From: Eledone cirrhosa
Taxonomy: Eukaryota
DNA: 64,000 nt
Direction of reading: 5' to 3'
Assembly (NCBI GenBank): GCA_964016885.1
Contig: OZ024740.1
Span: forward strand, 291,400,001-291,464,000
Made by a program: the position numbers and the translations under genes. Positions 3,401 to 63,639 of the stretch are shown here, piece after piece; positions within the stretch are counted from its first letter, which is position 1; the number at the start of each line of letters is the position of its first letter. The notes beneath the pieces were generated by a model that was not told the origin of the DNA, did not search any database, and saw only the letters and a list, made by a program, of their open reading frames with translations.

Positions 3401-3847
3401 CGCCCGGGTAGGGACCCCTCGAAGAAGATCTGTCCAAGATGCGTGCGTGACGAGGAAACCGTCGCACACGCATTCGTACACTGCCCGGGCGTTGCTGACC
3501 TGTGGGGCTATGTAGAACGACTACTGTCGCGGGTGGGACCAATCCGGTTGACCACCGAGAACATTGTCACAATCAAACCGCCTCCCCCTTTCAAAAACGA
3601 AGGAGAGGCGGTTTTCCTCTGTGTGATAGCCATGGCGAAAGAAGTTGTATGGTGGACAAGGTTGAAAGGGCTGAGGTCAGACACCTATCTCTCCGGCCAA
3701 CAACTGGTCTTTTTTTTCAAGTACCACTTTAGAAGAAGGATCAGAATGGAGAGAGAGGTGCTCTACCCCAGCAAGTTTTATGAAAGATGGGTGAAAGTAG
3801 CGAGAATGGCCCGAGTGAATGGGCCTTCTCTCTATATCAGCCTGTAG
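417..3847 (+). pseudogene. Tx1-like ORF2 (APE endonuclease - reverse transcriptase - zf-RVT), disrupted
   Basis: Motifs VNARGL, ICES, AYAP, GDW(D), SDHK, GYWKLN, SPGLDGL, NFRPITLLN, LDQSKAFD, RQGCPLS, AYADD (~2462-2476), CPRC...ETVAHAFVHC. Lesions: TAG 621-623, compensating frameshifts near 895 and 960, frameshift near 1655. Confidence 0.93.
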
Positions 3848-14304: not shown

Positions 14305-15720
14305 ACATCATATTATCATCATTTTACGTCCGTTTTTCCATGCTTGCAAAGGTTATTGGAGTTTCTTTCATTACAGTCTCCCTCCACTTGTCATGTTTTA
14401 TCTTTTCTTCTGTCAGGTTCGGTATTTTAAGATCTGCTTTCATCACTCTGCCCTGATCTTCCTCAGCTGTAGCTTATTTTCACTGAGAAATCTGGTATTT
14501 CTTCAACTAGTGATCATCACCCATACTCATCACATGCTTATACCAGTGCAGTCTTCTCTCCTGCACACTATCTTTGAGTCATCTTTACTATCTTTGAGTC
14601 ATCTTTTCCTAGTTTTTCTCTCAGCTTATCCATGATTTACTATCCATGTACATTGATACCACACATCCATCGGAGCATACTTCATTTCTCTCCATCCTCC
14701 TCACACCCTCTGACACTTTACACGCAGGCATCATAGAACTGGCCTTTTATAGTCTTCCAAGGCTAGGAAGAATTTATTTCACTGGAACTCCTACTACTAA
14801 CTATACTTCTGCCTCTTTAACTTATAAAGTCTACCCTTTCTGTTAGTCTGCCTACAATTCCACTACATCTCTTGTGTACCTATGCTTTACATTGTGTATA
14901 TCATATGGATTTCCTACCTATTCTTTTTCTGCACATCAAACAAGGCCACTTCCCTGATGGGATCATAGTCCTGTTTTCTTCTTTAGCTCTTCCACAGATT
15001 CAGCTACAAGAAGCAGATCATAAGCTTTCAGAAGTTCTCATGGACAATCAGTCTTAAACTCCATTATGGTCTGGAGAAATATATTAAACAAACTGTGCTG
15101 AGGACTGAGCCTTGATGAACACCTACCTGTACATTGAATTCCTCACTAAATTCATTATCTACTCTCATTTTCTGACAGCTATCACAAGCCCCTCATTTAC
15201 ACCCAGCTTCTTTAATGACCAGCAGATAACAAATCTTAGAACCCTAACAAAGGCCCCTTCTCCAGATCATCAAATGCTGTGTACAACAGATTACATTTGG
15301 CCAGGGACTTATAGTTGTCACATTAAAAAGCTCCTTCATAGCACAAAGCCAAAAATGCATCTCATTTAACTAGATTCTTTCACTTTCATAACATGTTCAT
15401 CAATTTTATTCCTCTGTAGTTGCTCTTTTTTAGAGCATCACCTTTTGTAACAATTAATGATTATGCTATTCTGTCAGTCATTGGGTATGACATTATCATG
15501 TATTACTTTATTGACTATGCAGGTGACTAGCTCAAATTCTACTTTAGATTATTTCAGTATCTCAGCAACTATTTCTGACACTTCAGCAGTTTTCCATTTT
15601 TCATTTACCTGATAGTTTCTTTTACTCTGTAAATGCCACCTAATAACTGGTCCTAATTCTTCCTTTCATTCTTCACATTCAACCTCTTAGCTATGTAAAA
15701 CAATTTTCAATGTAATTCTT
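14305..15720 (-). mobile_element. Old, heavily decayed RTE LINE (PHD-bearing lineage)
   Basis: Reverse-complemented tail CATCATTTTACGTCCGTTTTTCCATGC. The - strand still reads PSGKWPCLMCRKRIGRKSI near 14900-14960 and HQGSVLS near 15090-15120. Confidence 0.75.
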
Positions 15721-17329: not shown

Positions 17330-18170
17330 TTCAACCTCCTGCCTTTCATCACTCGTGAACACGGCGCCAAGATACTTGAAATTCTCCACCTGCTTCAGTG
17401 GAACTCCACTCATATGTAGTGTACTGAGAAGGCTTCCTTGGGAGGATGAAGGTCTAAATCTTAGCAGCACTGATTTTTATTCCTGCCGTGCAGCACTCGG
17501 CATCAAACCTATCAGGTGCTGACGTCTGCAAATTCCAACCAACTGATCTTACATCTGCCCGCCTTAATACCACTTTCAACCCAGCTGCAAATGTCAATTC
17601 TGTTCATGAAGATTATGAACAGGAGAGGTGATAGTACGCACCCTTAATAGAGTCTGATACCCACATTGAATGGTTTCAAATTAGCAACATTTATCCAAAC
17701 ACAAATACTAGGACATTCATACACAGACATCAGGGCAACAAGAAACTGTCCTTCAATCCTATACCCCTGCAGAACAGGTCACATGCCTTTCCAAGGTCTA
17801 CAAAACAAGCATACACCTCTTGGCAATAGTCCCACGATGAATTCCCACTGTGAATATTTGGTCAGCTGTGCTGCATCCAGGGTGAAAACTGCACTGTTCA
17901 TCAGCTAGCTTGGATTCAAGAATCTTCCTACATCTCTTTGCCAGACACTTAGCATAGATTTTACCTGGGAGGCTTAACAAGGAGATCCCTCTGTAATTGG
18001 AACAATCTCTCTTGTCTCCCTTTTTGGAGATTGGGATTATCACTTCCGATTATCATTGCTTAGGTGCCTTTTCCAGAAATCCTGGTACACACGAGTCAGC
18101 CAGAGAATACGGTCTCTATTTAAAGTTTTTCACATCTTAGGCCGAATTACATCCTCCCCAGATTTTACAG
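17330..18170 (-). mobile_element. Decayed RTE-clade RT fragment (lineage without PHD insert)
   Basis: IIPISKKGDKRDCSNYRGISLLSLPGKIYAK, EQCSFHPGCSTADQIF, LKQVENFKYLG. Confidence 0.85.
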
Positions 18171-20230: not shown

Positions 20231-23200
20231 TTTTGTTAATAACAGTAGTTGTTCCTGTACATAATGTCAAACTATCTTCTGTTAATGACAGTAGTTGTTC
20301 CTGTACATAATGTCAAACTATCTTCTGTTAATGACAGTAGTTCCTGTACATCATGTCAAAATATCTTCTGTTAATGACAATAGTTGTTCCTGTATATCAT
20401 GTCAAACTTTCTTCTGGTAATGACAGTAGTTCCTGTACATCATGTCAAACTATTTTCTGTTAATGACAGTAGTTGTTCCTATACATCATGTCAAACTTTC
20501 TTCTGTTAATGACATTAGTTCTTTCTATACATCGTGTCAAACTATCTTCTGTTAATGACAGTAGTTGTTCCTCATATACGTCATGTCAAACTATCTTCTG
20601 TTAATGACAGTAGTTGTTCCTGTACATGATGTCAAACTATCTTCTGTTAATGACAGTAGTTGTTCCTGTACATCATGTCAACATATCTTGTTAATGACAG
20701 TAATTGTTCCTGTACATCATGTCAAACTATCTTGTTAATGACAGTAGTTGTTCCTCATATACATCATGTCAAAATATCTTCTGTTAATGACATTAGTTGT
20801 TCCTGGAGATTATGTCAAACTATCTGTTAATGATAGTAGTTGTTCCTGTACATCATGTCAATCTTTCTTTTATTAATGACAATAGTTGTTTCTGTACATC
20901 ATGTCAATCTTCCTTTTGTTAATGACAATAGTTGTTCCTGTAAATCATGTCAAACTATTTTCTGTTAATGACATTAGTTGTTCCTGTACATCATGTAAAA
21001 ATATCTTCTGTTAATGACAGTAATTGTTCCTGTACATGATCTCAAAATATCTTCTGTTAATGATAGTAATTGTTCCTGTACGTCATGTCAAACTATCTTC
21101 TGTTAATGACAGTAATTGTTCCTGTACATCATGTCAAAATATCTTCTGTCAATGACAGTAATTGTTCCTGTACATCATGTCAGAATATCTTCTGTTAATG
21201 ACAGTAATTGTTCCTGTACATCATGTCAGAATATCTTCTGTTAAGGACAGTAGTTGTTACTGTTACATCATGTCAAACTATCTTCTGTTAAGGACAGTAG
21301 TTGTTCCTGTACACCATGTCCAACTATCTTCTGTTAATGATAGTAGTTGTTCCTGTACATCATGTCAAAATATCTTGTTAATGACATTAGTTTTCCTGTA
21401 CATCATGTCAAACTATCTTCTGTTAATGACAGTAAATGTTCTTGTACATCATGTCAAACTATCTTGTTAATGACAGTAGTTGTTCCTCATATACATCATG
21501 TCAAAATATCTTCTGTTAATGACATTAGTTGTTCCTGGAGATTATGTCAAACTATCTGTTAATCATAGTAGTTGTTCCTTTACACCATGTCCAACTATCT
21601 TCTGTTAATCATAGTAGTTGTTCCTGTACATCATGTCAAAATATCTTGTTAATGACATTTGTTGTTCCTGTACATCATGTCAAACTATCGTCTGTTAATG
21701 ATAGTAATTGTTCCTGTACATCATGTCAAACTATCTTCTGTTAATGACAGTAGTTGTTCCTGTCCATCATGTCAAAATATCTTGTTAATGACAGTAGTTG
21801 TTCCTGTACATCATGTCAAACTATCTTCTGTTAATGACATTAGTTGTTCCTCATATACATCATGTCAAACTATCTTCTGTTATCAACAGTAGTTCCTGTA
21901 CATCCTGTCAAACTAATTTCTGTTAATGACATTAGTTGTTCCTGTACATCATGTCAATCTTTCTTTTTGTTAATGACAATAGTTGTTCCTGTACATCATG
22001 TCAATCTTCCTTTTGTTAATGACAATAGTTGTTCCTGTACATCATGTCAAAATATCTTCTGTTATTGACAGTAATTGTTCCTGTACATCATGTCAAAATA
22101 TCTTCTGTTATTGACAGTAATTGTTCCTGTACATCATGTCAAAATATTTTCTGTTAATGACATTAGTTGTTCCTGTACATCATGTCAAAATATCTTCTGT
22201 TAATGACAGTAATTGTTCCTCTACATCATGTCAAAATATCTTCTGTTAATGACAGTAGTTGTTCCTGTACATCATGTCAAACTATCTTCTGTTAATGACA
22301 GTAGTTGTTCCTCATATACATCATGTCAAAATATCTTTTGTTAATGACTAGTTGTTCCTCATATGCATCATGTCAAAATATCTTGTTCATGACAGTAGTT
22401 GTTCCTGTACATGTCAAACTATCTTCTGTTAATGACTGTAGTTGTTCCTGTACATCATGTCAAAATATCTTCTGTTAATGACAGTAGTTGTTCCTGTACA
22501 TCATGTCAAACTATCTTCTGTTAATGACAGTAGTTGTTCCTGTACATCATGTCAAACTATCTTCTGTTAATAACAGTAATTGTTCCTGTACGTAATGTCA
22601 AACTATCTTCTGTTAATGACAGTAGTTCCTGTACATCATGTCAAAATATCTTCTGTTAATGACAATAGTTGTTCCTGTATATCATGTCAAAATATCTTCT
22701 GTTAATAGCAGTAGTTGTTCCTGTACATAATGTCAAACTATCTTCTGTTAATGACATTAGTTGTTCCTCATATACACCATGTCAAACTATCTTCTGTTAA
22801 TGACATTAGTTGTTCCTGTACACCATGTCAAACTATCTTCTGTTAATGATAGTAGTTGTTCCTGTACATCATGTCATATCTTGTTAATGACATTTGTTGT
22901 TCCTGTACATCATGTCAAACTATCTTCTGTTAAGACAGTAATTGTTCCTGTACATTATGTCAAACTATCTTCTGTTAACGATGGTAGTTGGTCTTGTGCA
23001 TCATGTCAAAATATTTTCTGTTAATGACATTAGTTGTTCCTGTACATCATGTCAAAATATCTTCTGTTAAGACAGTAATTGTCCCTGTACATTATGTCAA
23101 AATATCTTCTGTTAATGTCATGAGTTGTACCTGTACATCATGTCAAACTATCTTCTGTTAATGACAGTAGTTGCTCCTGTACATCATGTCAAACTATCTT

Positions 23201-23771
23201 CTCTTAATGACAGTAATTGTTCCTCATATACATCATGTCAAAATATCTTCTGTTAATGACAGTAGTTGTTCCTGTACATCATGTCAAACTATCTTCTGTT
23301 AATGACATTAGTTGTTCCTGTACATCATGTCAAACTATCTTCTCTTAATGGCAGTAATTGTTCCTCATATACATCATGTCAAACTATCTTTTGTTAATGA
23401 CAGTAGTTGTTCTTGTACATCATGTCAAACTATCTTCTGTTAATGACATTAGTTGTTCCTGTACATCATGTCAAAATATCTTCTGTTAACGACAGTAGTT
23501 GTTCCTGTACATCATGTCAAACTAACTTCTCTTAATGACAGTAATTGTTCCTCATATACATAATGTCAAAATATCTTTTGTTAATGAATAGTTGTTCCTC
23601 ATATACCTCATGTCAAAATATCTTGTTAATGACTAATTGTTCCTGTACATCATGTCAAAATATCTTCTGTTAACGACAGTAGTTGTTCCTCATATACATC
23701 ATATCAAACTATTTTCTGTTAATGACAGTAGTTGTTCCTGTACATCATGTCAAAATATCTTGTTAATGACA

Positions 23772-23844
23772 GTTTGACATGATGTACAGGAACAATTACT
23801 GTCATTAACAAGATATTTTGACATGATGTACAGGAACAATTACT
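23772..23844 (-). repeat. Inverted satellite segment (~1.5 units)
   Basis: TTTGACATGATGTACAGGAACAATTACTGTCATTAACAAG is the reverse complement of the unit. Confidence 0.95.
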
Positions 23845-25858
23845 ATCTTCTGTTAATGACAATAGTTGTTCCTGTACATCATGTCAAACTATCTTGTTAA
23901 TGACAGTAGTTCCTGTACATCATGTCAAACTAATTTCTGTTAATGACAGTAGTTGTTCCTGTACATCATATCAAACTATCTTTTGTTAATGACAGTAGTT
24001 GTTCCTGTACATCATGTCAATCTTTCTTTTGTTAATGACAATAGTTGTTCCTGTACATCATGTCAATCTTCCTTTTGTTAATGACAATAGTTGTTCCTTT
24101 ACATCATGTCAAACTATCTTCTGTTAATGACAGTACCTGTTCCTGTACATCATGTCAAAATATCTTCTGTTAAAGACATTAGTTGTTCCTGTACATCATG
24201 TCAAACTATCTTCTGTTAAGACAGTAATTGTTCCTGTACATTATGTCAAAATATCTTATGTTAATGACATTAGTTGTTCCTGTACATCATGCCAAAATAT
24301 TTTCTGTTAATGACATTAGTTGTTCCCCATATACATCATGTCAATCTATCTTCTGTTAATGACAGTAGTTGTTCCTGTACATCATGTCAAACTATCTTCT
24401 GTTAATGACATTAGTTGTTCCTCATATACATCATGTCAAAATATCTTCTGTTAATGACAGTAATTGTTCCTGTACATCATGTCAAACTATCTGTTATTGA
24501 CAGTAGTTGTTCCTGTACATTATGTCAAACTATCTTCTGTTAATGACAGTAGTTGTTCCTCATATACATCATGTCAAACTATCTACTGTTAATGACAGTA
24601 GTTGTTCCTGTGCACCATGTCAAATTATCTTCTGTTAATGACAGTCGTTGTTCCTGTACATCATGTCAAAATATCTTCTTTGAATGACAGTAGTTGTTCC
24701 TGTAAATCATGTCAAAATATCTTTTGTTAATGACAGTCGTTGTTCCTGTACATCATGTCAAACTATCTCCTGTGAATAATAGTTGTTCCTGTACATCATG
24801 TCAAACTATCTTTTGTTAATGACAAGGGTTGTTCCTGTACATGACGTCAAAATATCTTCTGTTAATGACAGTAGTTGTTCCTGTACATCATGTCAATCTA
24901 TCTTCTGTTAATGACAGTAGTTGTTCCTGTACATCATGTCAAACTATCTGTTATTGACAGTAGTTGTTCCTGTACATCATGTCAAACTATCTTCTGTTAA
25001 TGACAGTAGTTGTTCCTCATATACATCATGTCAAACTATCTTCTGTTAATGACATTAGTTGTTCCTCATATACATCATGTCAAAATATCTTCTGTTAATG
25101 ACAGTAGTTGTTCCTTTACATCATGTCAAAATATTTTCTGTTAATGACAGTAGTTGTTCCTGTACATTATGTCAAACTATCTTCTGTTAATGACATAAGT
25201 TGTTCCTGTACATCATGTCAAACTACCTTTTGTTAATGACAGTTGTTGTTCCTGTACATCATGTCAAACTACCTTTTGTTAATGACAGTAGTTGTTCCTG
25301 TACCTCATGTCAAACTATCTTCTGTTAATGACAGTAGTTGTTCCTGTACATCATGTCAAACTACCTTTTGTTAATGACAGTAGTTGTTCCTGTACATCAT
25401 GTCAAACTATCTTCTGTTAATGACATTAGTTGTTCCTGTACATCATGTCAAAATATCTTCTGTTAATGACAGTAGTTGTTCCTGTACATCATGTTAAACT
25501 ATCTTCTGTTAATGACGGTAGTTGTTCCTGTACATTATGTCAAAATATCTTCTGTTAATGACAGTAGTTGTTCCTGTACATCATGTCAAACTATCTTCTG
25601 TTAATGACATTAGTTGTTCCTGTACATCATGTCAAAATATCTTCTGTTAATGACAGTAGTTGTTCCTGTACATCATGTGAAACTATCTTCTGTTAATGAC
25701 AGTAGTTGTTCCTGTACGCCATGTCAAACTATCTTCTGTTAATGACAGTAGTTGTTCCTGTACATCATGTCAAACTATCTTCTGTTAATGACAGTAGTTG
25801 TTCCTGTACGCCATGTCAAACTAACTTCTCTTAATGACAGTAATTGTTCCTCATATAC

Positions 25859-28800
25859 CTCCACACTTCTATTTCGTATCCAGTCCAAATAGCCAATCTA
25901 TTGCTAAAACAAATCTGCATTTTTTGTTATCATTAATTGTTAGATACGAGAGTCTTTGTCGTATTGAACAGAACCAATCTTGTATTTTTGTTAATCGCTT
26001 GTTAAATACAAGGACCCCATTCAATCATTACCTTCTAGCTAGCTACCCAACACCCCTCCCTTCCTCCCCCACGCACCACCATTGTTATTACGTGGACCAA
26101 TCATAAGCCAGAGCTCCCACGCATCACCATTATTATTATTACGCGGACCAATCATAAGCCAGAGGCCTATACTATCGCTTGCCTGGTTGCCTTTCGATAT
26201 ATGATGGATGGATGGACTGCGGAATCCTGGAGAGTGGAGGAGAGAGAAAAATCTGGACGCTCAGCGACAATGCCAAAGATAAAGACAAATTCACCTCGTG
26301 GACGAGAATGCGAGCACACCTCATTGTTTCGACCGCGGACGGCTAACATAAACCCCCCCCCCCCCCCCACCGCCCCCAACCCCCAAACGCAATCCAAAAC
26401 TTCAGAGTTGGTACCATAAATGTAGGCACCTTAAAGGTTCGCGCTAACGAGGTTGTAGAAATGCTTGAACGTAAGGAGGTCGATGTTTGTTGTATTCAAG
26501 AGACCAGATGGAGGGGTGGGTCTGCTAGATTCATTGAGGGTAAAAAACGATGTTATAAGCTTTTCTGGGCGGGAAACGACGATGGGCTAGGTGGAGTAGG
26601 AATCATGGTAGCAGAAAAGTGGGCAGATAAGATAATAGACGTAAATAGAGTGAACGACGGAATAATTAAAATAAGACTTGTCCTCAATAGAACGACGGTG
26701 ACAGTAATATCTGCGTACGCACCCCAATCCGGACTGCCTGGCACTATAAAAGACAGATTCTATGAGACACTGATGCTCACTACCTCCCAAATAACCGACA
26801 GTGACTATATAATTATCGCAGGCGACCTAAATGGTCACGTTGGACAACATTGTGACGGCTACGACGAAATCCATGGAGGCTATGGGTTTGGTACTAGAAA
26901 TGAGGAAGGCTCCAGAATCCTGGAATTCTGTGACGCAAATAACCTAACTATCTGTAACACTAACTTCAAAAAACGTGACAATCACCTGATCACCTATAGA
27001 TCCGGGGAACACACAAGCCAGGTAGATTATATCCTTACCAGAAGACGTGACAGAGTGTCTGTTGTAAACACTAAATCCCTCCCCCATGAAGAATGCACCT
27101 CCCAACATAGACTGATAATTAGCGACCTCATAGTCAGGACGAGACGTACTCGACAGCAGAAGAGGACTATCCTCAGGAGAAAAATATGGAAGCTAAAGGA
27201 CCCCACAGCCAGAAATAAATTTCAAAGCATATTACTTGATGCTTTCGACAGTAAGGAAGAGCATTTAGAGTCGGACAATATAGAGGGACAGTGGGAATTT
27301 CTGAAAGCAAACCTCCTGATGGCGACAGACGAAGTCTGTGGCTGGAGCAGGCCTGTAGACAGGAGGAGAGTAACATGGTGGTGGAACAGTAGGGTGGAGG
27401 GGTCAATTAAGGCCAAAAAGCAGGCTTGGAAAGTATGGCGGGATGGGGGAAGTAGAGAAGACTATCAAGTGGCCAGGAGGGAGGCGAGGAGACAAGTGTA
27501 CTTCGCAAGAAGGGAAGCAGAGGAAAGAAAGTTCAAGCATGTTCTACAACGCGAGGACCAAAAACGTGAGGTGTTCAGGATTGCTAGGCAATGTGTCAAG
27601 GAAAACCGTGATATTGTCGGGGAGAAGTGTGTACTTAATGATGACGGCGTACTTGCCATCACCGACGCTGATAAGAAGGTAGCTTGGAAGTGCCACTATG
27701 AAAGGCTACTAAATGAGGAGAATAAATGGGAGAAAGACAGTCTCCCCCACATCGACCCAATAGAGGGACCAGCAGTGTTAGTCGAGGGTAGTATAATAAG
27801 TAAGGCAATCAAGGATATGAAGACGGGTAAGGCGGCTGGGCCTTCGGAAATAGTTGCTGAGATGCTGAAGGCATCTGGCTCGGTGGGACACACCTTGGTC
27901 ACCCGGATAGTTAACCAAGTCATACAGAATGGGGTTGTTCCGAAGGACTGGCAAAGCAGCATCATCGTTAACTGTTATAAGGGTAAAGGAGATGCCCTAG
28001 ATAGGAGTAACTATAGAGGCATTAAACTAATCGACCAGGTGATGAAGGTCACGGAAAAAGTAATAGCGCAACTAATCAGAGAGAGAATTGACCTAGATGA
28101 AATGCAGTTCGGGTTTGTGTCAGGCAAAAGTACCACAGACGCTCTTTTCATTGTACGTTAACTACAGGAGAAGTACCTAGCTAAAGGTAAACTCCTCTAC
28201 TTAGCTTTTGTCGACTTGGAGAAAGCCTTCGTCAGAGTCCCCCGTTCCATTATCTGGTGGGCCCTTAGAAAACTAGGTGTCGACGAATGGCTTGTGAGAG
28301 CTATACAAGCCATGTATAAAGAAACAGTCAGCAAGGTTAGAATTAACGAATATAGTGAAGAGTTTAGAGTAAAAGTTGGCATCCATTAGGGCTCTGTTCT
28401 CAGCCCCCTACTATTTATTATTGCCCTTCAGGCTATAACAGAGGAGTTCAAGACCGGCTGCCCATGGGAACTCCTATACGCAGACGACCTGACACTCATA
28501 GCTGAATCAATGGCCGAGTTAGAGAAGAAATTCCAAACATGGAAGCACGGCCTAGAATCAAAAGGCCTTAAAATTAACCTGGCTAAGACTAAAGTTCTAG
28601 TTTGTAGGAAAGAAAATAAGGCGGCGGTCCCTTCCGGGAAATGGCCATGCTCAGTGTGTAGGAAAGGCGTAGGTAGAAACTCCATTTTATGTCCCAAATG
28701 CAAAGTATGGGTGCATCAAAGATGTAGTGGGATCACAGGTAAGCTAACTAAGAACATAGATTTCACATGTGGCCGGTGCTCTGGTGCAATAAGTAGCAGC

Positions 28801-29822
28801 GAGTGCCCACAAAATACTAACTCTTTCAATTGCGCAGAGGGCTCTATAGAAATAGTGGACAGCTTCCGTTACCTGGGTGACAAAATCAGCAGTGGGGGAG
28901 GGTGCTCCGAAAATACAGTAGCTAGAGTCAGAACTGGATGGAAAAAGTTCAGAGAGCTTATACCACTATTAGCCGTTAAAGGGTTCTCCCTAAAAATGAA
29001 AGGCAGGTTGTATGATGCCTGCATACGAACAGCAATGTTGCATGGCAGTGAGACCTGGGCATTGTGCGCAGAGGATATACGCAGACTAGAGAGGAACGAA
29101 GCTTGCATGCTCCGCTGGATGTGTAATAGTAATATACGTGAACGGCAAAGCATAAACGAACTAAGGAAAAAATTAGAAATAAGAGGGATCAGATGTTGTT
29201 TACTCGAGAGAAGGCTACGTTGGTATGGACACGTGATGCGCATGAAAGTCGATAGCTGTATAACAAAGTGCAGGGCAATAAAGATAGACGGTAGCCACGG
29301 AATAGGCAGACCTAGAAAATCCTGGGACGAGCTGATAAACTCCGACCTCACACACTTATACCTCTCCAAGACAATGTCACTGGACCAAGATCTTTGGCGG
29401 TACTCAGTAATAGAGAAGACCCGCCTTACCTAAATACATAGTAAAACCTACTACAGCCAGTAGGCATCTCTAACAAAATACACCCCCGTCCCACCACCCA
29501 CACCCCCATCCACACCACCCCCTCCTATGTAAAGTTATGTTGGTGCCACAACATCCAGGCCGAAACAAATGAGATCGTGGAGGTGTCACGACAAAAAAAC
29601 ACACAGTCCACGCTGTAATGTGGCCGTGTAGGCAACACGGTAAAAACCTCCCAGTCCCACACTGTAAATGTGGTTCGTGTTAGGAAGGGCATCCAACTGT
29701 AGAAAACCTGCCAGACAGTCCTATGCGAGCAAGACAATCACTCTTGCCTCAAGTGGGAATACCTCCGTCCAAACCCATCCAAGCGTGGAACACGGACGTT
29801 AAACGTTGATGATGATGATGAT
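25859..29822 (+). mobile_element. Near-full-length RTE-clade LINE (~3.96 kb) inserted in the satellite, (GAT)n tail
   Basis: 5' UTR, one long APE-RT frame, and a 3' UTR ending GGACGTTAAACGTT(GAT)n. It splits a unit as TCATATAC|...|ATACATCATG. Confidence 0.96.
26383..29433 (+). pseudogene. RTE ORF: APE endonuclease - RT - PHD finger insert - C-terminal domain; two nonsense codons
   Basis: RVGTINVGTL, CIQETRW, SAYAPQ, GDLNGHVG, VDYIL, SQHR, SNYRGIKL, QFGF, FVDLEKAF, LLYADD (28471-28488), FRYLG, RLRWYGHV. In-frame TAA 28159-28161 and TAG 28387-28389. Probable frameshift in the poly-C near 26353-26370 joining ORF 26201. Confidence 0.93.
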
Positions 29823-30083
29823 ACATCATGTCAAAATATCTTTTGTTAATGACTAGTTGTTCCTCATATACCTCATGTCAAAATATCTTGTTAATGACAG
29901 TAATTGTTCCTGTACATCATGTCAAACTATCTTCTGTTAATGACATTAGTTGTTGCTGTACATCATGTCAAAATATCTTCTGTTAACGACAGTAGTTGTT
30001 CCTCATAAACATCATATCAAACTATTTTCTGTTAATGACAGTAGTTGTTCCTGTACATCATGTCAAAATATCTTGTTAATGAC

Positions 30084-30253
30084 AGTTTGACATGATGTAC
30101 AGGAACAATTACTGTCATTAACAAGATATTTTGACATGATGTACAGGAACAACTACTGTCATTAACAGAAAATAGTTTGATATGATGTATATGAGGAACA
30201 ACTACTGTCGTTAACAGAAGATATTTTGACATGATGTACAGGAACAATTACTA
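30084..30253 (-). repeat. Inverted satellite segment (~3.5 units), fold-back of the preceding units
   Basis: Its reverse complement reproduces the private variants of 29959-30086 (TTAACGAC, CATATCAAACTATTTTCT, ATATCTTGTTAAT). Confidence 0.95.
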
Positions 30254-33200
30254 TCTTCTGTTAATGACAATAGTTGTTCCTGTACATCATGTCAAACTAT
30301 CTTGTTAATAACAGTAGTTCCTGTACATCATGTCAAACTAATTTCTGTTAATGACAGTAGTTGTTCCTGAACATCATGTCAAACTATCTTCTGTTAATGA
30401 CAGTAACTGTTCCTGTACATCATGTCAAACTATCTTCTGTTAATGACAGTAACTGTTCCTGTACATAATGTCAAAATATCTTCTGTTAATAACAGTAATT
30501 GTTCCTGTACATAATGTCAAAATATCTTCTGTTAATAACAGTAGTTGTTCCTGTACATAATGTCAAATTATCTTCTGTTAATGACAATAGTTCCTGTACA
30601 TCATGTCAAACTATCTTCTGTTAATGACAGTAACTGTTCCTGTACATCATGTCAAAATATCTTCTGTTAATAACAGTAGTTGTTCCTGTACATAATGTCA
30701 AACTATCTTCTGTTAATGACATTAGTTGTTCCTGTACATCATCTCAAACTATCTTCTGTTAATAACAGTAATTGTTCCTGTACATCATGTCAAAATATCT
30801 TTTGTTAATGACAGTAAGTGTTCCTGTACATTCTGTTAATGACAGTAATTGTTCCTGTACATCATGTCAAACTATCTTCTGTTAAGACAGTAATTGTTCC
30901 TGTACATTATGTCAAAATATCTTCTGTTAAAGACATTAGTTGTTCCTGTACATCATGTCAAACTATCTTCTGTTAAGACAGTAATTGTTCCTGTACATTA
31001 TGTCAAAATATCTTATGTTAATGACATTAGTTGTTCCTGTACATCATGTCAAAATATTTTCTGTTAATGACATTTGTTGTTCTTCGTATACATCATGTCA
31101 AACTATCTTTTGTTAATGGCAGTAGTTGTTCCTGTACATCATGTCAAACTATCTTCTGTTAATGACAGTAGTTGCTCCTGTACATCATGTCAAATATCTT
31201 GTTAACGACAGTAGGTGTTCCTGTACATCATGTCAAAATATCTTCTGTTAATGACATTAGTTGTTCCTCATATACATCATGTCAAACTATCTTCTGTTAA
31301 TGACAGTAGTTGTTCCTGTACATCATGTCAATCTATCTTCTGTTAATGACAGTAGTCGTTCCTGTACATCATGTTAAACTATCTTCTGTTAATGACATTT
31401 GTTATTCCTGTACACCATGTCAAACTATCTTCTGTTAATGACAGTAGTTGTTCCTGTACATCATGTCAATCTATCTTCTGTTAATGACAGTAGTTGTTCC
31501 TCATATACATCATGTCAAAATATCTTCTGTTAATGACAGTAGTTGTTCCTGTACATCATGTCAAACTATCTGTTATTGACATTAGTTGTTCCTGTACATC
31601 ATGTCAAACTATCTTCTGTTAATGACAGTAGTTGTTCCTCATATACATCATGTCAAAATATTTTCTGTTAATGACAGTAGTTGTTCCTTTACATCATGTC
31701 AAAATATTTTCTGTTAATGACAGTAGTTGTTACTGTATATCATGTCAAACTATCTTCCGTTAATGACAGTAGTTGTTCCTGTACATCATGTCAAAATATC
31801 TTCTGTTAATGACTAGTTGTTCCTCATATACATCATGTCAAACTATCTTCTGTTAATGACAGTAGTTGTTACTGTACATCATGTCAATCTATCTTATGTT
31901 GATGACAGTAGTTGTTCCTGTACATCATGTCAAATTATCTTCTGTTAATGACAGTAGTTGTTCCTGTACATAATGTCAAACTATCTTCTGTTAATGACAG
32001 TAGTTGTTCCTGTACATCATGTCAAAATATCTTCTGTTGATGACAGTAGTTGTTCCTCATATACATCATGTCAAAATATCTTCTGTTAATGACAGTAGTT
32101 GTTCCTCATATACATCATGTCAAACTATCTTCTGTTAATGACAATAGTTGTTACTGTACATCATGTCAATCTATCTTCTGTTGATGACAGTAGTTGTTCC
32201 TGTACATCATGTCAAACTATCTTCTGTTAATGACAGTAGTTGTTCCTGTACATCATGTCAAACTATCTTCTGTTAATGACAGTAGTTGTTCCTGTACATA
32301 ATGTCAAAATAACTTCTGTTAATGACAGTAGTTGTTCCTGTACATCATGTCAAACTATCTTCTGTTAATGACAGTAGTTGTTCCTGTACATAATGTCAAA
32401 CTATCTTCTGTTAATGACAGTAGTTGTTCCTGTACATCATGTCAAACTATCTTCTGTTAATGACAGTAGTTGTTCCTGTACATCATGTCAAACTATCTTC
32501 TGTTAATGACAGTAGTTGTTCCTGTACATAATGTCAAACTATCTTCTGTTAATGACAGTAGTTGTTCCTGTACATCATGTCAAAATATCTTCTGTTAATG
32601 ACAGTAGTTGTTCCTCATATACATCATGTCAAAATATCTTCTGTTAATGACAGTAGTTGTTCCTGTACATCATGTCAAACTATCTGTTAATGACATTAGT
32701 TGTTCCTGTACATCATGTCAAACTATCTTCTGTTATTGACAGTAGTTGTTCCTCATATACATCATGTCAAAATATCTTCTGTTAATGACAGTAGTTGTTC
32801 CTTTACATCATGTCAAAATATTTTCTGTTAATGACATAAGTTGTTCCTGTACAACATGTCAAACTACCTTTTGTTAATGACAGTAGTTGTTCCTGTATAT
32901 CATGTCAAACTATCTTCCGTTAATGACAGTAGTTGTTCCTGTACATCATGTCAAAATATCTTCTGTTAATGACAGTAGTTGTTCCTCATATACATCATGT
33001 CAAACTATCTTCTGTTAATGACAGTAGTTGTTCCTGTACATCATGTCAAAATATCTTCTGTTGATGACAGTAGTTGTTCCTCATATATATCATGTCAAAA
33101 TATCTTCTGTTAATGACAGTAGTTGTTCCTCATATACATCATGTCAAACTATCTTCTGTTAATGACAGTAGTTGTTACTGTACATCATGTCAATATATCT

Positions 33201-44317: not shown

Positions 44318-47047
44318 TAAAAAGTAATATAGCCATATATAAAAGATCTGGTTTGTGCTTTTAATTCAATGAAGACGCTAATGCTCAACATTAGTGTTTC
44401 AGGATTTTTTTTATTCATCATCAGTGACATTTATTTACTTTGTATTAGTCAAGAAATAGGTGAGGATGGATTAAACAATACTGGAGCACTACTGTCTGGC
44501 TTTCTCACATGGCTACTGAGACAGATATAACATGATCAGAGCTTAAAATACCCATAGCAAGACCTATGTATGTTTATAACACATAAACATATTGTAAAAG
44601 TCTTCATACACACCTCTATTATGAATCGCAATATATTAGTACTACTACTATTATAAAGACTAGTCAGTGAAGTACAGCCTGTGGTGATATGCTGTCCATT
44701 TTATGTACATTTTGGATTTATGTGGGGAAGTTGGGGATCCAGGCAGGACTACAGTGTTCCATGGTGGAGCTAATGTATTGTTACTGGGGTTTTTCTTTCT
44801 CTTGATAAAATGTCAAACTTGTGTTTGCTCTTTGTCATTTTTTCACTATCATTTAGCTTTTTTATTGTCTTCTCTGTTATGAATGTTGTGGGTTTGTTGT
44901 GTGTAACAGCTAGTATTTTTCTTAGTGTGTATGTGTGTAGTATTTTTATATTGTTGACTGATGGTTGTGTTTTATGTTGTTGGTAAGAAGGGAGATAGTG
45001 GATTTGGTAGAATGTTTTAAGGATTTAAACTATATTTGTAGTAGCTTAATGGATTAAACTATATATATGTTGAAGAGCCAAAAAAAATGTAGTGTTTCTT
45101 TGACACAATATTGGAGTGATTGTATTTTGGTGTTGTTGAAGGAGGTTAGGTTTTCATGTTCTTATTAAGATTGTTTTCAAAATTTCTGTTCACAGAAACA
45201 ATACAAGTTTGACATATGTTGTCTAGTTTACATATGGTTGATGCCTGTGTGCAGAACGTTAAGCGGGTAATGTATAGGATTGGTGTTATAAGAGTGGCAG
45301 TGAATCAGTGGTTTATTTACAGAAAAAAAAAAAGTGGAAGATATAAAGTGAACTCTGAAGGACACCAGAGTTGGTAGAATGCCAGATAGAGAACTCTCTA
45401 AGTGAATCATTAGCTTTAGTTGTATATGGACATATCTAGCAGAATAAGGCCATCTGGGAATAACAATGGCCAAGACCTTTGTGGGAACATCAATCAGGTG
45501 TAATGTTACAGTCCACAGCATCACCATCCTGTGGAAGAATTAGATGGGAGGTGAGAGCATAGTATCATCTGTATTGGAGTATCTGACAGCAAGTAGGTCA
45601 TTAATCCTTTCGTTACTGCATTTCTAATGAAATACACTCTATTAGAATTAGTTAATGAAGAATTTGGAGGGGTTTATTAAAATTATGTTGAAAGATTTTA
45701 ATTTAAATAGAAACCTTTAAAATGGGTGCTTTTGTGTCAGAATGAGAGCCAGTTTTGGGCAGGTTGGTATCAAAAGAGAGAATGTGAGGTATCACTTACT
45801 GATCCTTGGGTACACCAAGAATCAGAGTTGATAGAATGAGGGTTGGTGTGTGCTCCATCAGCACACATTTCAATGATCTAATAGGAATCTGCTAAATTCC
45901 AGAAGTGTGTGACTGGTGTAGACTGCACTTCCAGCTATGGTGTAGATTGCACTTCCAGCTAGCAGTCTGCAATAGTCACTGGTGTAGATTGCAATAATCA
46001 TTGGTAAAGGCTTTGATAATCTCAAGTGTAACAACATTGGTTTAGCCAAAATTCTCAAAAGTGAGAGATCATTGAGTGATAATAGGAGAACCAGTCTCCA
46101 GTAGATCTGGCTTGGTGGCAGCCATACTAATAATCAATAAAAAAGAATAGAGATTGAAGGAGATGGTTGTTGACACTGTTGATATTACCTTTGAGGTGTT
46201 GGAAGTACATGCTCTAGGTTGTTACTTGGTCAAGGTTAGAGAGGGTAACTTTGGCTGTGGAGGAACATGCTCTAGGTTGGTACTTGGTCAAGGTTAGAGA
46301 TGGTGGCTTTTTTTTTTTTGTTTTTAGTTGGGTAGATTGAAAAGTTTGGTGGACATAGAAACTAGCTCAGAGATTGATAGAAATGGCGCTATCAGGATCA
46401 GTCACCTTGTGTTCGAGTGGTCTGAATGCATCTTCAAGCTCCGTTTTTCCTTTTTCCTATATAATATGTACTTGATACTAATAATAAGAAATATAACTAA
46501 CTAATACAGTTAATCCTTTAAATATTTGTAAACAATTTCTGACATAATTTAATACTCAACATTTTAGATAGTATGTTTATTGTAAAACTACTAATGACGA
46601 GATAACATTCATAAGAATGTAACTAAAACTTGTTCACTGTTTGTAAAATGGTATTTTATCTCTTAGCATCCTGTTCCACATAAGACCACATTTGCAAAAT
46701 ATTCTTGAAATTACAAAACAACTCTATGACTGCATCATATAAAAAATTAAAGTCTCTACAGCTCTATGCCTGCATCATAAGAAAAATTAAAGTCTTTACT
46801 TAGCTGCAAATTTTCACAACACTGTTCTGTCCATTAGTAAAGATACTATAAACGTTTGAATTAACAAAGCAGTTTTTAAATATTGTTTGTTAAATCATTA
46901 CAGGATGTTGAGTTAAGAAAATTCTTAGTACATTTTATGTGTTCTGAGTGAAATTTTCTTAGTAGATTAATGACAAGAAAAAGAAATGTCTATGAAATTA
47001 ATTTAGTGATATTTGTTTAATTGTATTTTTGTTTTGTTCTATTTCAG

Positions 47048-48216
47048 GATGTAATTGTGATGCATTGCACTATGGGAAAAGATGAGTATGTTAAATCAAA
47101 AGGTGGAATCCTCAAAGCAAGTGCATTAGAACAGACAGACAATCAAGTACCTATTGGAGGTAAAATAGATGTGGCCTGGGACAATTATGGTCCAAACAAT
47201 AGCTTTAAAGAAACTACAAAAAATACTTTTAATAACAGTATAGGGCAAGTATCAAATGAATTTCACAAGAGTAATAGTCAAAGTAAAGAGTTTGCAACTG
47301 GATCTAATCGATGCAAGAAAAGAACTCCTTCCCAAAACTCTATGAAGTCATTATCAGATATATTATTAGAGAATAATGATTGTCACCATAACAAATCAAA
47401 TGGTCCATTGGTTACAGATTCCATTGATGTTAGTCCTCTTGATAACAACTCTGATAATGAAGATTTAGGGCTGACAACACATCGGCCTGATATCAATGCT
47501 AACCAAAATATTAATTTTGTAAATCCGCCATCTAATTTTTCGAATACAATCACCAATCTGTTTAACCAAAGTCATAGCAAAAAGAAAGACAACACAAGTA
47601 AAAATCATGGAGATGAAAGCTGGAGAAATAACAGGAAAATTGTTGGCAAAGGAAAGAATGATAACTTTTACAATCAGTCTCCATCCTCAATAACATCTAA
47701 TAATTACATAATGCATGATCAAGAGAACCTTGGTTACCAGCAACAACAACAGCAACAACAACAACATAACTATGAGCAGTATGTTATCCCCCAAAACTTT
47801 GCCTATACAGCAGATGATATTTACCGAAATGCGCTATCTGTTGGATCCTATCCTAATCTAATGACTCATAAGAAAGTCCCTGAGATGTTTAGTTTTGTGA
47901 ATGCATTGGTGTCGCCACCTTTCTTTGCACGTTCATATCACCCAGAACAGAGGCAGCAATCACATACATCATCCCAGTTTTACTCTGCTATCCAGTCTGA
48001 TAGAAATGGTTGTCTTAAGATACCACAGCAATCTCCCAGACATTGCTATCATTCAAACTCTATTCATCAGACCCATGATTACATGAATTCTTTCTATGTT
48101 GACAATTCTCAACATTTAGACAGCAGACTTCATTGTACAAATGTAGACTACCCTGATCAACATTACCAGTTGCATCAAAATGTTAATGTCTCAACAACTC
48201 GCTCTCTTGAAACTTG
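47048..48216 (+). CDS. F-box/LRR gene exon A (N/S/Q-rich, polyQ at 47738-47764); first in-frame ATG at 47060
   Basis: Acceptor TTTCAG|GAT, donor TG|GTGAGT, long ORF in AT-rich DNA; phase 2 fits the next exon. Confidence 0.8.
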
Positions 48217-48640
48217 GTGAGTTCTTTTCTTTCAAGCAATTATTCTTTGTTTATCTCTACTTTTTACTGTTGCATTTTCTTCATTTTAAGTATGTTTTAT
48301 ATAAATTACTGTTCCCTATACAGTCTTTGATCTTATAACCTTCCTTGAAAACTATGTGACCTTCTAGAAATAGCAGCTAAGTTTCATTCAAACATAATTC
48401 CTACTGACTTAACTCATGACATTCTGTAATGATTTAGCTGAAAATATTTAAAAAATGGCCTTGGTAATTCATGTTTATGGTAACTTTACTAATGGATAGA
48501 TCATTATTGTGAAAATATTCAATAATTAAAGAGTTAAAATTTAAATGGGATTCAGTCATAGTGCTGTTTTCTTCTTTTCAAGACTGTCTTGCTAATGCAG
48601 TTTCATGTGGTACATGATGTTAATAGATAGTTAAGCACAC

Positions 48641-48978
48641 ATGGAGGCACATGGCTTAGTGGTTAGAGCATTGGCCTTGCAATCGAAAGGTTGTGAGTTC
48701 AATTCTCAGATCGGGTGATGTGTTGTTTCCTTGAGCAAGACACTTTATTTCACATTGCTCCAGTTTACTCAGCTGTAGAAATGAGATGATAGGGACTGGG
48801 GTCCATATCATGCCACTGCAAAGAGGTCATGCAGGTGCCACGGCAAAAAAGCACCCAGCACTCACTGTAAATGAGGTTGGTGTTAGGAAGAGCATCCAGC
48901 TGTAGAAATCAAGCCAGAATCAGTTCCCGTCCCACCCTTGCAAGCAGGAAAAAAGCGGACGTAAAATGAAATGAATGA
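48641..48978 (+). mobile_element. tRNA-derived CORE-type SINE (family B) with RTE-derived tail
   Basis: Head TGGCTTAGTGG..GAGTTCAATTC, core CCTTGAGCAAGACACTT, tail CCCGTCCCACCCTTGCAAGCAGG..GCGGACGTAAAATGA, as at the end of the 62791-63639 RTE. Other copies at 54082-54365(+), 42980-43085(-), 58440-58725(-). Confidence 0.8.
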
Positions 48979-49530
48979 ATTGGATAATGGAATTGTATAT
49001 ATACCGAATCTGAAAAAAAATGGTCACAACTGTAATAGCTTTGATCCTAGATCTGCTCAATCAGTGCTGCCCTGGGGCTAAATAAATGCTATTCACCAAG
49101 TTACAAAATGATTTAATGACTAGATGGATCCAGCCCACTCTGTAAAGTGCTAGTGCTGGTGCTACAATAAAGAGCACACAGTTTTCCCTGTATGATGGTA
49201 GTGCTGTGTAAAGTAATAGTGCCAGTGACAATAGAATGTTTCTAGTATATGCTGCAAGATGCAAGATGGTTGGCATTATGAGGCGCATCCAAGCTAAAAA
49301 TGGAGTGTACAAGCAAGACAAAGTCAACTAACCAGTCTAGCCTCAGTATGTGACAGCCCGTCTAACCTAATACAATGGTGATGATGATGGTCAACACACT
49401 AGATCATGAATTCTGTTTCTTTTTAAATTAAGAGAAATTCATACTGGATTATTTTTTAGAAAAAAACTAGCTTCTATTCACCTCATTTTTAGTGTGTATA
49501 TTTATATTTAAAATATTTATATTCAAGTTC

Positions 49531-50505
49531 CATCCATCATCATCATTTTACACCCGCTCTTCTCTGCTTGCAAGGGTGGGACGGGTCTTATTCAGCACAG
49601 CATCTCTCCACTTGTCACGGTCCTTTGTGATCTCCACCATGAGCTTCAGTGATCTGAGGTCTGTTCTCACCACCTCTGCCCATGTTTTTTGGGGTCTACC
49701 TCTACCATGTCTTCCTTCAACTGGCATTTCCTGGCACTTCTTTACCCATCGGTCATCCTCCATGCGCATCACATGTCCATACCACCTCAGTCTCCTCTCC
49801 CGTACACTACATTCTATCCCTCTCAGACACAGTTTCTCTCTCAACACATTCATGCTGGGTTGTTCACGCACATTGACACTGCACATCCAATGGAGCATGC
49901 TTGCCTCATTTCTCTCCAGCCGTCGCATATCCTCTGCAGTTGCTGCCCATGTCTCACTACCATGCAGCATCACGCTCCTCACACAAGCATCATATAACCG
50001 GCCTTTCGTATGCAGGGAGAAACCCTTCTTCATCAGCAGAGGAAGCAGCTCCCTAAACTTCTTCCAACCTGTCCTTATTTTAGATACTATGGCCTCGGAA
50101 CACCCTCCTCCCATGCTAATCTGATCTCCTAGGTACCAGAAGCTATCCACCACTTCTATAGCACCCGCCTGCATTTGAAAAATGTGTTTATCAATGCGAC
50201 TTCTACTGTCTAATTTCCCTGTACATTTACTGCATACATATTTCTCCCTACCTGTTAGTTTGCCTGCTATCCCGCTACATCTCTTGTGTACCCAGGATCT
50301 GCATTGTGTGCATTTTATAGAATTTATGCTAGTTCCTTTTCTGCATATCGAACATGGCCATTTCTCTGACGGAATCAGAGTTTTGTCCTCTTTTCTACTC
50401 ATCAACACTTTTGTCTTAGCTAGGTTCACTCTCAGTCCTCTAGCTTCCAACTGCTGTTTCCATAGCCAGAATTTATTCACTAGCTCCTCTACTGATTCTG
50501 CTATA
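49531..50505 (-). mobile_element. 5'-truncated RTE LINE (PHD-bearing subfamily 2), intronic antisense
   Basis: ORF 49548-50480: GLRVNLAKTKVL, KWPCSICRK..CTQC.SWVHKRC..CSKC, FWYLG, RLRWYGHV; (GAT)n tail. Confidence 0.93.
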
Positions 50506-51146
50506 ATTTTATTCCAGAATGTTTACATTGTCCCAGGCTGGATTTGAACATGTAATCTTTATTTGTAAACAAAGAGCAATAATATTCATATTCATTTACC
50601 CTTTAGTTACCATAATTCTAAAAAAATACACAGCCTATGTGTATCAATTAGTTTTGAAAATTTGGAGAATTTAATGTTTTCATTAGTAAGCTGATGTTTG
50701 AAACATTACTTAATATTTTGAATAAAATTATGATAAGTTTTAATAGAAGTATGAATATTTTAAAATGAGCAGTTATCTGTCATAAAACCAGGGCAGTTTG
50801 AGGTGGATTGGTATCAAAAGGGTTAAGCAACAGTTTTATTGCATCATGATGATGATGAAGAAGTATTAGTGTGTTTGAGTGCTGCAGTGGTTTGGTGCTC
50901 TTTAACCAATAATTAAAATAAGAGTTTCAGTACTGCCAATACAGTTTTATCCTCATCCCTATATTTGATATTTATAGTTTCTAAAGCTGAAACAAGAGAG
51001 AAAATAGTTGGGTAAGGTGGGGGAGGGCATTGTTGAATTTATAAAAAAAAAAAGCAAAATTATTTTTTTAGTTTTCCATTAATTTCCTTTCTGTTAATGA
51101 ATTATCAACTGTTTTTATTGTATTTTATTTTTTGTTATCGTTACAG

Positions 51147-52406
51147 GCGAAACCAAACTGGTGAGGAATTTTGCAATGTAATTGAAAGAAACAAAAGTTG
51201 CTCCAACAGCAAACCAATATTTCGATCACGATCATTATCAGCTGTTGAACAATCTAACCTCTGTCTCGACCGGGGATCTCCTCCACATAAATCAAACTAC
51301 GACGCTGGCAAAGTAGAAAATAACTTGAAAAACTTTCATATTGGTCATGCTCCTTCAGACAGCCGTCACTTTCAGCAGCAGTGTAACCCACAGAGGAATA
51401 CGTTTAATTCTCTTATAACTCCTGAAAATGCAATGATACAACCAGTCATGCATGTTTGTCCTGAGTGCCATTCTGAAAATGCCATGCATGCCCAATATTG
51501 TACTTATTGTGGAGAATGTTTAACTGAAAGAGCTCAACCAGCTGTCTATCCTCAAGACAGTATACATACTAATTTTAGAGATGAAGAATTCTCTTATCCT
51601 TGTGATATTAATAATGATGATAATGTATTTAATGAAACTATTTCACATGCCAGTTCTTTCCCTAATAGCCATTTTCAGTCTTCCTATAACTATAGAACCA
51701 CTAAAGCAACCACTAGAAGGCAGTACCAAATTCAACAAGAGGCAAGCCACTCATTTTCTCCAGGAGAATACCGTGCTTTCCATTGTGGAGCCAACAAACC
51801 TGAATGTTACTCTGATACAGAGATTAGTCTAAAGTCACCATCAACACATAAAATGTTGTCCTCTTGTGACTGGGAAGATTCTTCTCAAGATAATTTAGCA
51901 ACTCCAATTTTTGCAATGGATGAAGAAATGTTGAACCCTGCTGATCAGAATATTTATTCAGTATCACAGTTGAATTTCAATGATTCTGTTCTTGATTGCG
52001 GGAGTTTTTCAGAAACAGACTTAGAGTTAATCGCAGCTCAACAACACCCACTGTCAGAAGAAAACTCTGATAAAACTTCAGGCAAATACATTGGAACAAA
52101 AGGATCAAGGAAAATATGGAAAAAACCCAATGCTCCCAGCAGTGGTAATGAGGGTAATAGTCCTGTGTATCATCGTCACTGGGAAAGATCTAGTTGTGGC
52201 TCTACTTTTTACCTAAAAGAGCCAAATTCTATGTATAACTTAAATTCACAAAAGACTAGAAATAAATCAAGCAATAGTGAGAAGTGTAAAGAAACTGAAA
52301 ACAAACTTCTACCTGGTAGTAATATTTCTAACTTTCCTCGTAAAGAACTGAAAAAGGTTGTACAACAGAATGGGGCTACAAAGAATCGGAAGAAAATTCA
52401 TTCCAA
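51147..52406 (+). CDS. F-box/LRR gene exon B (1260 nt), zinc ribbon CPECHSENAMHAQYCTYCGE at 51457-51516
   Basis: Acceptor TTACAG|G completes TG+G=Trp; donor AA|GTAAAA, phase 2. Confidence 0.85.
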
Positions 52407-62790: not shown

Positions 62791-63639
62791 ACAAAACTCT
62801 GATTCCGTCAGGGAAATGGCCATGTTCGATATGCAGAAAAGGAACTGGCATAAATTCTATAAAATGCACACAATGCAGATCCTGGGTACACAAGAGATGT
62901 AGCGGGATAGCAGGCAAACTAACAGGTAGGGAGAAATATGTGTGCAGTAGATGTACAGGGAAATTAGACAGTAGAAGTCGCATTGATAGACACATTTTTC
63001 AAATGCAGGAGGGCGCTATAGAAGTGGTGGATAGCTTCCGGTACCTAGGAGATCAGATTAGCATGGGAGGAGGGTGTTCCGAGGCCATAGTATCTAGAAT
63101 AAAGACGGGTTGGAAGAAGTTTAAGGAGCTGCTTCTTCTGTTAACGAAGAAGGGTTTCTCCCTGCGTACGAAAGGCCGGTTGTATGATGCCTGTGTGAGG
63201 AGCGCGATGCTGCATGGTAGTGAGACATGGGCAGCAACTGCAGAGGATATGCGACGGCTGGAGAGAAATGAGGCAAGCATGCTCCGTTGGATGTGCGTGA
63301 ACAACCCAGCATAAATGTGTTGAGAGAGAAACTGTGTCTGAGAGGGATAGAATGTAGTGTATGGAAGAGGAGACTGAGGTGGTATGGACATGTGATGCGC
63401 ATGGAGGATGACCGATGGGTGAAGAAGTGCCAGGAAATGCCAGGTGAAGGAAGACGTGGTAGAGGTAGACCACGAAAAACATGAGTGGAGGTGGTGAGAA
63501 CAGATCTCAGATCATTGAAGCTCACGGTGGAGATGATGAAGGACCGTGACAAGTGGAGAGATGCTGTGCTGAATAAGACCCGTCCCACCCTTGCAAGCAG
63601 GGAAAAGCAGATGTAAAATGATGATGATGATGATGATGA
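62791..63639 (+). mobile_element. 5'-truncated RTE LINE (PHD-bearing subfamily 2), intronic sense
   Basis: Nearly identical to the reverse complement of 49531-50385, with a 13-nt deletion near 63295 and a (GAT)n tail. Confidence 0.93.

Follow-up and report, generated by a model that had tools for sequence, protein, structure and literature searches.

A PHD finger between reverse transcriptase motifs 6 and 7 of RTE-type retrotransposons in Eledone cirrhosa

The locus and the elements that carry the finger

The window (the whole stretch of DNA that was analyzed, 64,000 nucleotides of the Eledone cirrhosa genome) harbors a single-ORF APE-RT retrotransposon of 3.97 kb, together with the other elements listed in Table 1. 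The focal element has no ORF1 and no C-terminal zinc knuckle, and its reverse transcriptase (RT) contains a complete C4-H-C3 finger, which in translation reads WPCSVC-x10-CPKC-x4-H-QR-C-x14-CGRC. In the RT motif that follows the finger, the F, L and G are invariant in the family alignment. The focal copy is dead: it has in-frame stops at 28159 and 28387 and a one-codon deletion, and its frame changes on the 5′ side near a poly-C run at ~26340-26385. This copy has broken up an array of a 46-bp satellite, of which more than 60 copies per side lie within the scanned stretch (23000-25851 and 29822-32986), and the target overlap at the split amounts to a few bases only.

Table 1. Coordinates of the retrotransposon features in the window.
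Feature	Position	Strand	Evidence
Near full-length RTE, family A, (GAT)n tail	25857..29822	+	97.9% identity, 3973 bp, to copy L031
APE-type endonuclease domain	26413..27120	+	PF03372 and PF14529 above cut-off
RT motif 6 GLKINLAKTKVL, N-terminal anchor of the insert	28564..28599	+	Sequence; aligns to L1 GYKINVQKSQAFL
PHD finger (C4-H-C3), between RT motifs 6 and 7	28642..28779	+	PF00628 above cut-off; AF2 and Foldseek
RT motif 7 EIVDSFRYLG, C-terminal anchor of the insert	28849..28878	+	Sequence
5′-truncated family B copy, complete finger 50223-50360, antisense in host intron	49535..50506	-	Pfam, sequence matching
5′-truncated family B copy, complete finger 62817-62954	62791..63639	+	Pfam, sequence matching
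Old decayed copy of the finger clade, partial finger	14826..15621	-	tblastn and blastn
Old finger-less RTE fragment, distant lineage, outside the finger clade	17330..18170	-	Sequence; tree

According to an earlier note on this DNA, the finger has the spacing of a PHD finger and lies between RT motifs, and its eight ligands are kept in two divergent copies and partly in an old one. These claims were borne out. The translated focal finger matches the Pfam model PF00628 at 30.3 bits (cut-off 24), with the whole model covered, and the family B copies retain complete fingers that score 26.8 bits (minus strand) and 28.1 bits (plus strand); all three complete copies of the window exceed the cut-off in the profile comparison with PHD models that the note had proposed. 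In the old copy, the finger (~14830-14948, minus strand) contains stops, and Cys1, Cys2, Cys4, the His and the next Cys remain. The full finger pattern occurs three times in the window and in none of 50 base-shuffled windows, and 36 of 36 diverse fingers of the clade match PF00628 at E ≤ 0.01. An assembly artefact was considered as a reading of the finger and rejected. A C1 (DAG-binding) domain was also rejected: the finger ends in CxxC and does not have the conserved N-terminal His, and the C1 models stay below their cut-offs on the focal copy, with C1_1 spanning only part of the finger. The C1_2 model scored 26.5 against a cut-off of 26 for one isolated 58-aa finger piece.

Two young, high-copy families of this genome, A and B, encode the finger. 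The best 150 hits of family A are all 96-100% identical and come from 62,499 first-look candidates in a genome of 3.0 Gb, a figure that is not a copy number; the best 150 hits of family B lie at 91-99% identity. Some family A copies have open frames of more than 1000 aa, such as that of the 1076-aa protein P0001. A genome search with PF00628 was swamped by RTE fingers (37,938 first-look candidates), and RTE elements make up 15 of the best 30 loci. A dense cluster of equal-scoring 138-nt PHD matches was observed at ~19.3-23.7 Mb of a single chromosome, C25. In such genomes, RTE fingers may inflate PHD family counts.

The window also contains a second LINE at 921-3847 (plus strand), which looks young, has long open frames with RVT_1 and zf-RVT above cut-off, and which from these features we take to be L1/Tx1-like. 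An unnamed host gene has exons at 47021-48215 and 51146-52400 (plus strand) with only weak zinc-ribbon Pfam matches; the spliced joint of its GT..AG intron (48215-51146) was found in contigs of three of three runs, the RNA status of which is guessed at best. Of the four copies that had been proposed to lie in a gene body, only the one at 49.5-50.5 kb was shown to do so, being antisense and intronic.

Distribution among relatives and constraint

When the finger was included in the query, all eight ligands were kept in 120 of the 120 relatives listed (of 157 found), in agreement with the ligand conservation across subfamilies that had been proposed. When the RT core alone was used as the query, a complete finger was present in 116 of the 120 nearest relatives listed (of 1096), and the remaining four are gene calls affected by truncation, frameshift, degeneration or deletion. 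Clustering at 50% yielded 150 representatives, 122 of them scorable, among which 16 have complete fingers, one has a broken finger, 80 are without it and 25 are unclear. The named hosts among the listed relatives are Octopus bimaculoides, which provides the closest named protein (64% identity), Branchiostoma floridae and the catfish Neoarius graeffei. Finger copies also leak into gene models and metagenome bins; in annotations, members of the clade appear as clam-symbiont bacterial MAG proteins (P0256 cluster; probably DNA of the host), a catfish slc22a21 isoform and an amphioxus 'ribonuclease H' (P0034; P0309).

For a tree of the RT core, the finger was removed from the sequences, and of the 70 rows 30 come from proteins that have the finger and 40 from proteins that do not; P0261, a truncated finger copy, and P0452, which aligned poorly, were left out, and the rest were thinned by identity. 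In this tree of unnamed or automatically named proteins, the finger proteins nest among finger-less RTE-type RTs. The tree holds no named RTE reference, and the RTE label is one that we assume from the features of the element and from its RTE-like motifs. Finger presence requires two character changes on the tree, which fits, with weak support, one gain within RTE and one nested loss (P0481); the SH-aLRT values are 80 for the finger clade and 97 for the finger clade plus three finger-less sisters. The spacing between motifs 6 and 7 is ~97-106 aa with the finger versus 35-44 aa in finger-less RTE relatives, and the ~65 extra residues house the PHD finger. The RTE fragment at 17330-18170, which had been offered as an internal control, does lack the finger, but it belongs to a distant old lineage rather than to the sister group: its other genomic copies are 73-79% identical, and its relatives are ~35-41% identical in the RT core.

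In the comparison of families A and B, dS has reached saturation, and pN and pS are therefore reported in place of dN/dS. In the finger, pN is 0.24 and pS is 0.87-0.94, so that the selection comparison across subfamilies suggested by the note gave a pN far below pS. Identity between the two families is 65% in the finger, 62-63% in the endonuclease and 20-30% in the adjoining linker. Across 120 relatives, the finger has a mean column conservation of 0.67, compared with 0.72 in the RT core and 0.35 in the linker. Judged by these sequence comparisons, the finger evolves under purifying selection.

Predicted fold, surface and insertion sites

The model predicted for the full protein has a pLDDT of 87.3 and a pTM of 0.84. 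In this model, the finger buds from a predicted beta-hairpin, with a pLDDT of ~90 over residues 821-860 and of 60-65 in the linker blocks; the finger alone was predicted by AF2 with a pLDDT of 82. A fold comparison had been proposed earlier, and a PHD cross-brace was indeed predicted, with the PHD fingers of Pygopus and TAF3 nearest. The Foldseek matches are the PHD fingers of Pygo2, TAF3, Pygo1, ING4 and BPTF, and every row shown contains a PHD finger; the top rows have TM scores of 0.61-0.68 and probabilities of 0.96-1.0 (one 0.52), with E-values of only 0.02-0.06. The best profile matches are likewise Pygopus PHD fingers. The finger is predicted to form a self-contained cross-brace module, attached by a flexible linker on either side, which would leave the palm undisturbed.

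The predicted full model matches L1 ORF2p and R2 with Z scores of 27-30, and its alignment to L1 stops at residue 1060, that is, at the wrist, which indicates that the modeled protein has no CTD. In L1, the CTD zinc finger melts or unzips target DNA (PMC7617806). The R2Bm loop 6a (residues 672-677), located between motifs 6 and 7, binds the target DNA on the upstream side, and nicking depends on it (PMC10499050). By alignment ranges, residue 670 of R2Bm, the last one matched by the family profile, corresponds to profile position 740, where the insert starts. By this alignment, the finger shares an inter-motif slot with the DNA-binding 6a loop of R2Bm, and we infer from this position that the finger would face target DNA.

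Among 237 distinct fingers, the near-invariant non-ligand residues are W (234), P (233), S/A (233), N (225) and V (217). The K4me2 cage of Pygo consists of W366, Y341, D352, V350 and A356 (PMC2726290), and sequence alignment indicates that four of these five positions are kept in RTE fingers. In P0001 numbering, the equivalents are W836 (W in 234 and Y in 3 of the 237), position 814, at Cys1-2 (Y, W or F in 200), V823 (217) and S827 (S or A in 233). By alignment, then, an aromatic cage with a divider Trp, the mark of H3K4me2/3 readers, is present; the divider Trp has been described as a hallmark of K4me readers (PMC3241642). The acidic anchors for H3 A1, R2 and K4, after Cys3 and at the lip, were not found: no D352 equivalent is present (any D/E in loop 1 in just 17 of 237 fingers), and neither is an equivalent of E360 (D/E after Cys3 in just 9 of 237), the mutation of which reduces Pygo to background binding (PMC2726290). 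Acidic residues are common but not universal among H3K4me readers; RAG2 recognizes K4me3 although it has no acidic R2 pocket (PMC3241642). An H3K4me0-reader type was considered separately and rejected: the cage is present, residues 811-813 are mostly S-G-K, and there is no acidic cluster before Cys1. Position 810, however, is D/E in 69 of 120 relatives.

The net charge of the 237 distinct fingers averages +7.1 (range +1 to +12) and is positive in every one, compared with a mean of -2.3 for host PHD fingers of the same genome (7 complete among 15 non-RTE loci). The charge per residue is 0.155 in the finger, 0.017 in the RT core and 0.123 in the wrist, and K or R occupies the first position after the finger His in 191 and the second in 213 of the 237 fingers. 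The whole protein is also basic (+61), and 38 of 1029 windows of 48 residues exceed the finger in basicity. The PHD finger of BAZ1A binds DNA via lysines and has no cage (PMC5636791), and the cross-brace finger (CRD) of piggyBac binds DNA (PMC5861402). The evidence on the function of the finger is therefore split, since there is precedent both for a DNA binder without a cage (BAZ1A) and for a reader without an acidic pocket (RAG2).

ATATAT or TATATA was found within 16 nt past the tail at 34 of 58 scorable junctions (60 loci). The corresponding figures are 1 of 29 junctions (30 loci) for young CR1 (p = 1.6e-7), a control that separates RTE from CR1 and not finger from no finger, and 1.5-15% for random positions. 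The control family (L116-L145) is CR1-like and very young; its open frame reaches 945 aa and its tail is (ATT)n. It was used in place of a finger-less RTE of matching age, of which none was found: the family in the window is old, and an RTE-2_OV primer gave 0 matches. Bov-B and plant RTEs, which are without the finger, show a TA signature tied to the 3′ microsatellite (PMC13295347, PMC6007223); therefore, the (TA)n preference cannot be credited to the finger. The flanks have a GC content of 0.32-0.35 and a CpG o/e of 0.47-0.58, versus 0.46 for young CR1 and 0.39-0.41 for the background. Family copies fall on chromosomes C1-C4 in 91 of 150 cases, compared with 52 of 102 for CR1 (p = 0.15; score-ranked lists, with chromosome size as a proxy). 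The steering of integration toward gene-rich or CpG-rich, promoter-like DNA that the note had proposed was thus not seen against CR1, there being little sign of it in flanks and chromosome size, which are weak proxies and subject to selection after insertion. At the 3′ junctions of L078, L080, L082, L027 and L036, tail-to-tail pairs of opposite orientation were observed at or close to a shared (TA)n tract, a pattern suggesting that hot spots are used repeatedly.

Possible functions and relation to known systems

The reading that we tentatively favor, at somewhat less than even confidence, is that the finger tethers the protein to target chromatin by gripping DNA next to the nick while target-primed reverse transcription proceeds. 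The endonuclease would first nick an AT-rich site; the finger, extending from the palm, would then reach the duplex or nucleosome on the upstream side and would hold the complex during first-strand synthesis, mainly via its basic residues. Under this proposal, the motif 6-7 loop would, by its position, face the upstream target duplex as 6a does in R2Bm, the basic surface would bind naked or nucleosomal DNA, and the finger would take the place of the zinc-finger modules with which L1 (CTD) and R2 (ZnF/Myb) hold DNA, while the retained Trp cage may contribute a secondary H3K4me contact. The tether draws on the position in the 6a slot, the mean charge of +7.1, the absent CTD, the BAZ1A and piggyBac precedents, the constraint and the predicted fold. 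However, the most conserved non-ligand residues are those of a methyl-lysine cage rather than basic ones, and the PHD finger of BAZ1A is cage-less; moreover, the protein is basic overall, with some windows more basic than the finger, and a TA preference is also seen in RTEs that have no finger. That such finger-less RTEs, which have no CTD either, are able to transpose also counts against the tether.

The earlier note had suggested a built-in chromatin reader, of which the PHD fold and the kept cage residues stand, whereas the finger has no acidic anchors and carries a strongly positive charge. A methylated-H3K4 reader of the Pygopus/TAF3 type, which would dock the protein on marked nucleosomes and bias integration, is compatible with the tether and is its main rival, although we regard it as unlikely. 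Its nearest solved relatives by profile and fold are Pygo1/2, followed by TAF3, BPTF and ING; four of the five Pygo cage positions are kept across the 237 fingers; and the divider Trp is a hallmark of readers that include RAG2, which does without the acidic R2 pocket (PMC3241642). Nevertheless, neither D352 nor E360 has an equivalent, although E360 is essential to Pygo binding (PMC2726290), and the binding face of Pygo is acidic, whereas the RTE finger carries a charge of about +7 and the H3 tail is itself basic. As weak proxies, the AT-rich flanks with a CpG o/e close to that of CR1, the entry of most scored 3′ junctions into (TA)n, the position of the focal copy in a satellite, and a chromosome distribution like that of CR1 with no excess on small chromosomes also argue against it. 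A combination of the two functions, in which the 6a loop of an ancient LINE clade has turned into a bivalent nucleosome reader with the cage for methylated H3K4 and the basic faces for DNA, so that the polymerase would itself select chromatin, appears to us rather unlikely.

Binding of the element's own RNA, either the template or the 3′ UTR, could partly replace the missing ORF1 of this single-ORF element, and the basic finger with its exposed aromatics would suit this role. Also in its favor, PHD fingers are present in ORF1 of CR1/L2 elements, often with Pygo as the top match (PMC4120745). We consider it improbable, however, as the loop faces target DNA in R2Bm (PMC10499050) and finger-less RTE relatives cope with the same motifs at the shorter spacing. 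We also give little credence to a protein-protein module for RT dimerization or host-factor docking, in which the cage would accept a non-histone or RT lysine or arginine. A pocket that is near-invariant while the histone-specific acids are lost agrees with such a module, and conserved surfaces of L1 ORF2p serve PCNA and PABPC1 (PMC7617806), but there is no known partner, and the uniform positive charge would be left unexplained. Finally, sister RTEs without the finger and its loss in the nested P0481 are what would be expected of a functionless passenger tolerated in a surface loop, yet all eight ligands are kept in every listed relative, the finger recurs in nearly all of those listed for the finger-free query, pN is far below pS, and the surface residues are near-invariant too; we regard a passenger as extremely unlikely.

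The finger element resembles the RTE clade (Bov-B and kin) in its single APE-RT ORF of ~1076 aa, its (GAT)n tail, its lack of a knuckle and its AT/TA-rich junctions, and it differs in the extra residues with the PHD finger. Kapitonov and Jurka reportedly described PHD fingers in ORF1 of CR1/L2 elements in 2003. The CR1/L2 fingers, as treated by Metcalfe and Casane (2014; PMC4120745), are likewise LINE-encoded, belong to a Pygopus-like class and have a proposed targeting role; however, they are located in ORF1 or N-terminally in the ORF of elements of the Jockey group, not inside an RTE RT palm. It is possible that a CR1/L2 ORF1 PHD finger was the donor of the RTE finger. The R2Bm 6a loop is also an insertion between motifs 6 and 7, but it is a short basic loop, DGHRKK, called unique to R2 (PMC10499050), whereas here a folded two-zinc domain fills the slot in an APE-type element. 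The finger insert is an independent elaboration of the loop used by R2 for DNA recognition. The PHD fingers of Pygopus and TAF3 are its best profile and fold matches, with most Pygopus cage positions kept, and the RTE finger differs from them in its shorter loops 1 and 2, its missing D352 and E360 equivalents and its opposite net charge. Chromovirus chromodomains and CopiaMBD (PMC6673714) are similarly chromatin-reader domains captured by retrotransposon enzymes, but in LTR elements, whereas the RTE module is embedded in the polymerase fold of a LINE.

RTE-2_OV of Octopus vulgaris (PMC9115989) is an octopus RTE with a zinc finger and a single ORF; in that source, however, the finger is described as C2H2 and the protein as 1109 aa long. 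Its four primers mismatch four family A and B copies at 6-8 of 20 bases. From the description and the primers, RTE-2_OV is probably a different element from families A and B. The main texts of mollusc and octopus repeat surveys (PMC10294476, PMC13282606) make no mention of PHD or zinc, and our literature search, the reach of which ends before Repbase Reports, found no description of a PHD finger inside an RTE RT. We therefore consider this arrangement undescribed in the literature searched; as the earlier note had anticipated, the architecture already exists in databases, where automatic Pfam labels place RVT_1 and PHD on many such proteins.

The finger bears on the questions of how APE-type LINEs that have neither a CTD nor an ORF1 keep hold of their target and of whether the PHD fingers of LINEs have a role in steering integration; Metcalfe and Casane, writing in 2014, were not aware of any functional work on such a finger (PMC4120745). 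The finger can be removed as an insert from a single protein, and finger-less sister elements provide natural controls, which makes for a clean test. The insert suggests that whole domains can be accommodated in the motif 6-7 loop, a property that could be relevant to directing LINE-based gene-insertion tools to new targets. If the bivalent nucleosome reader were true, LINE reverse transcriptases would possess, in the motif 6-7 loop, a swappable targeting socket of natural origin.
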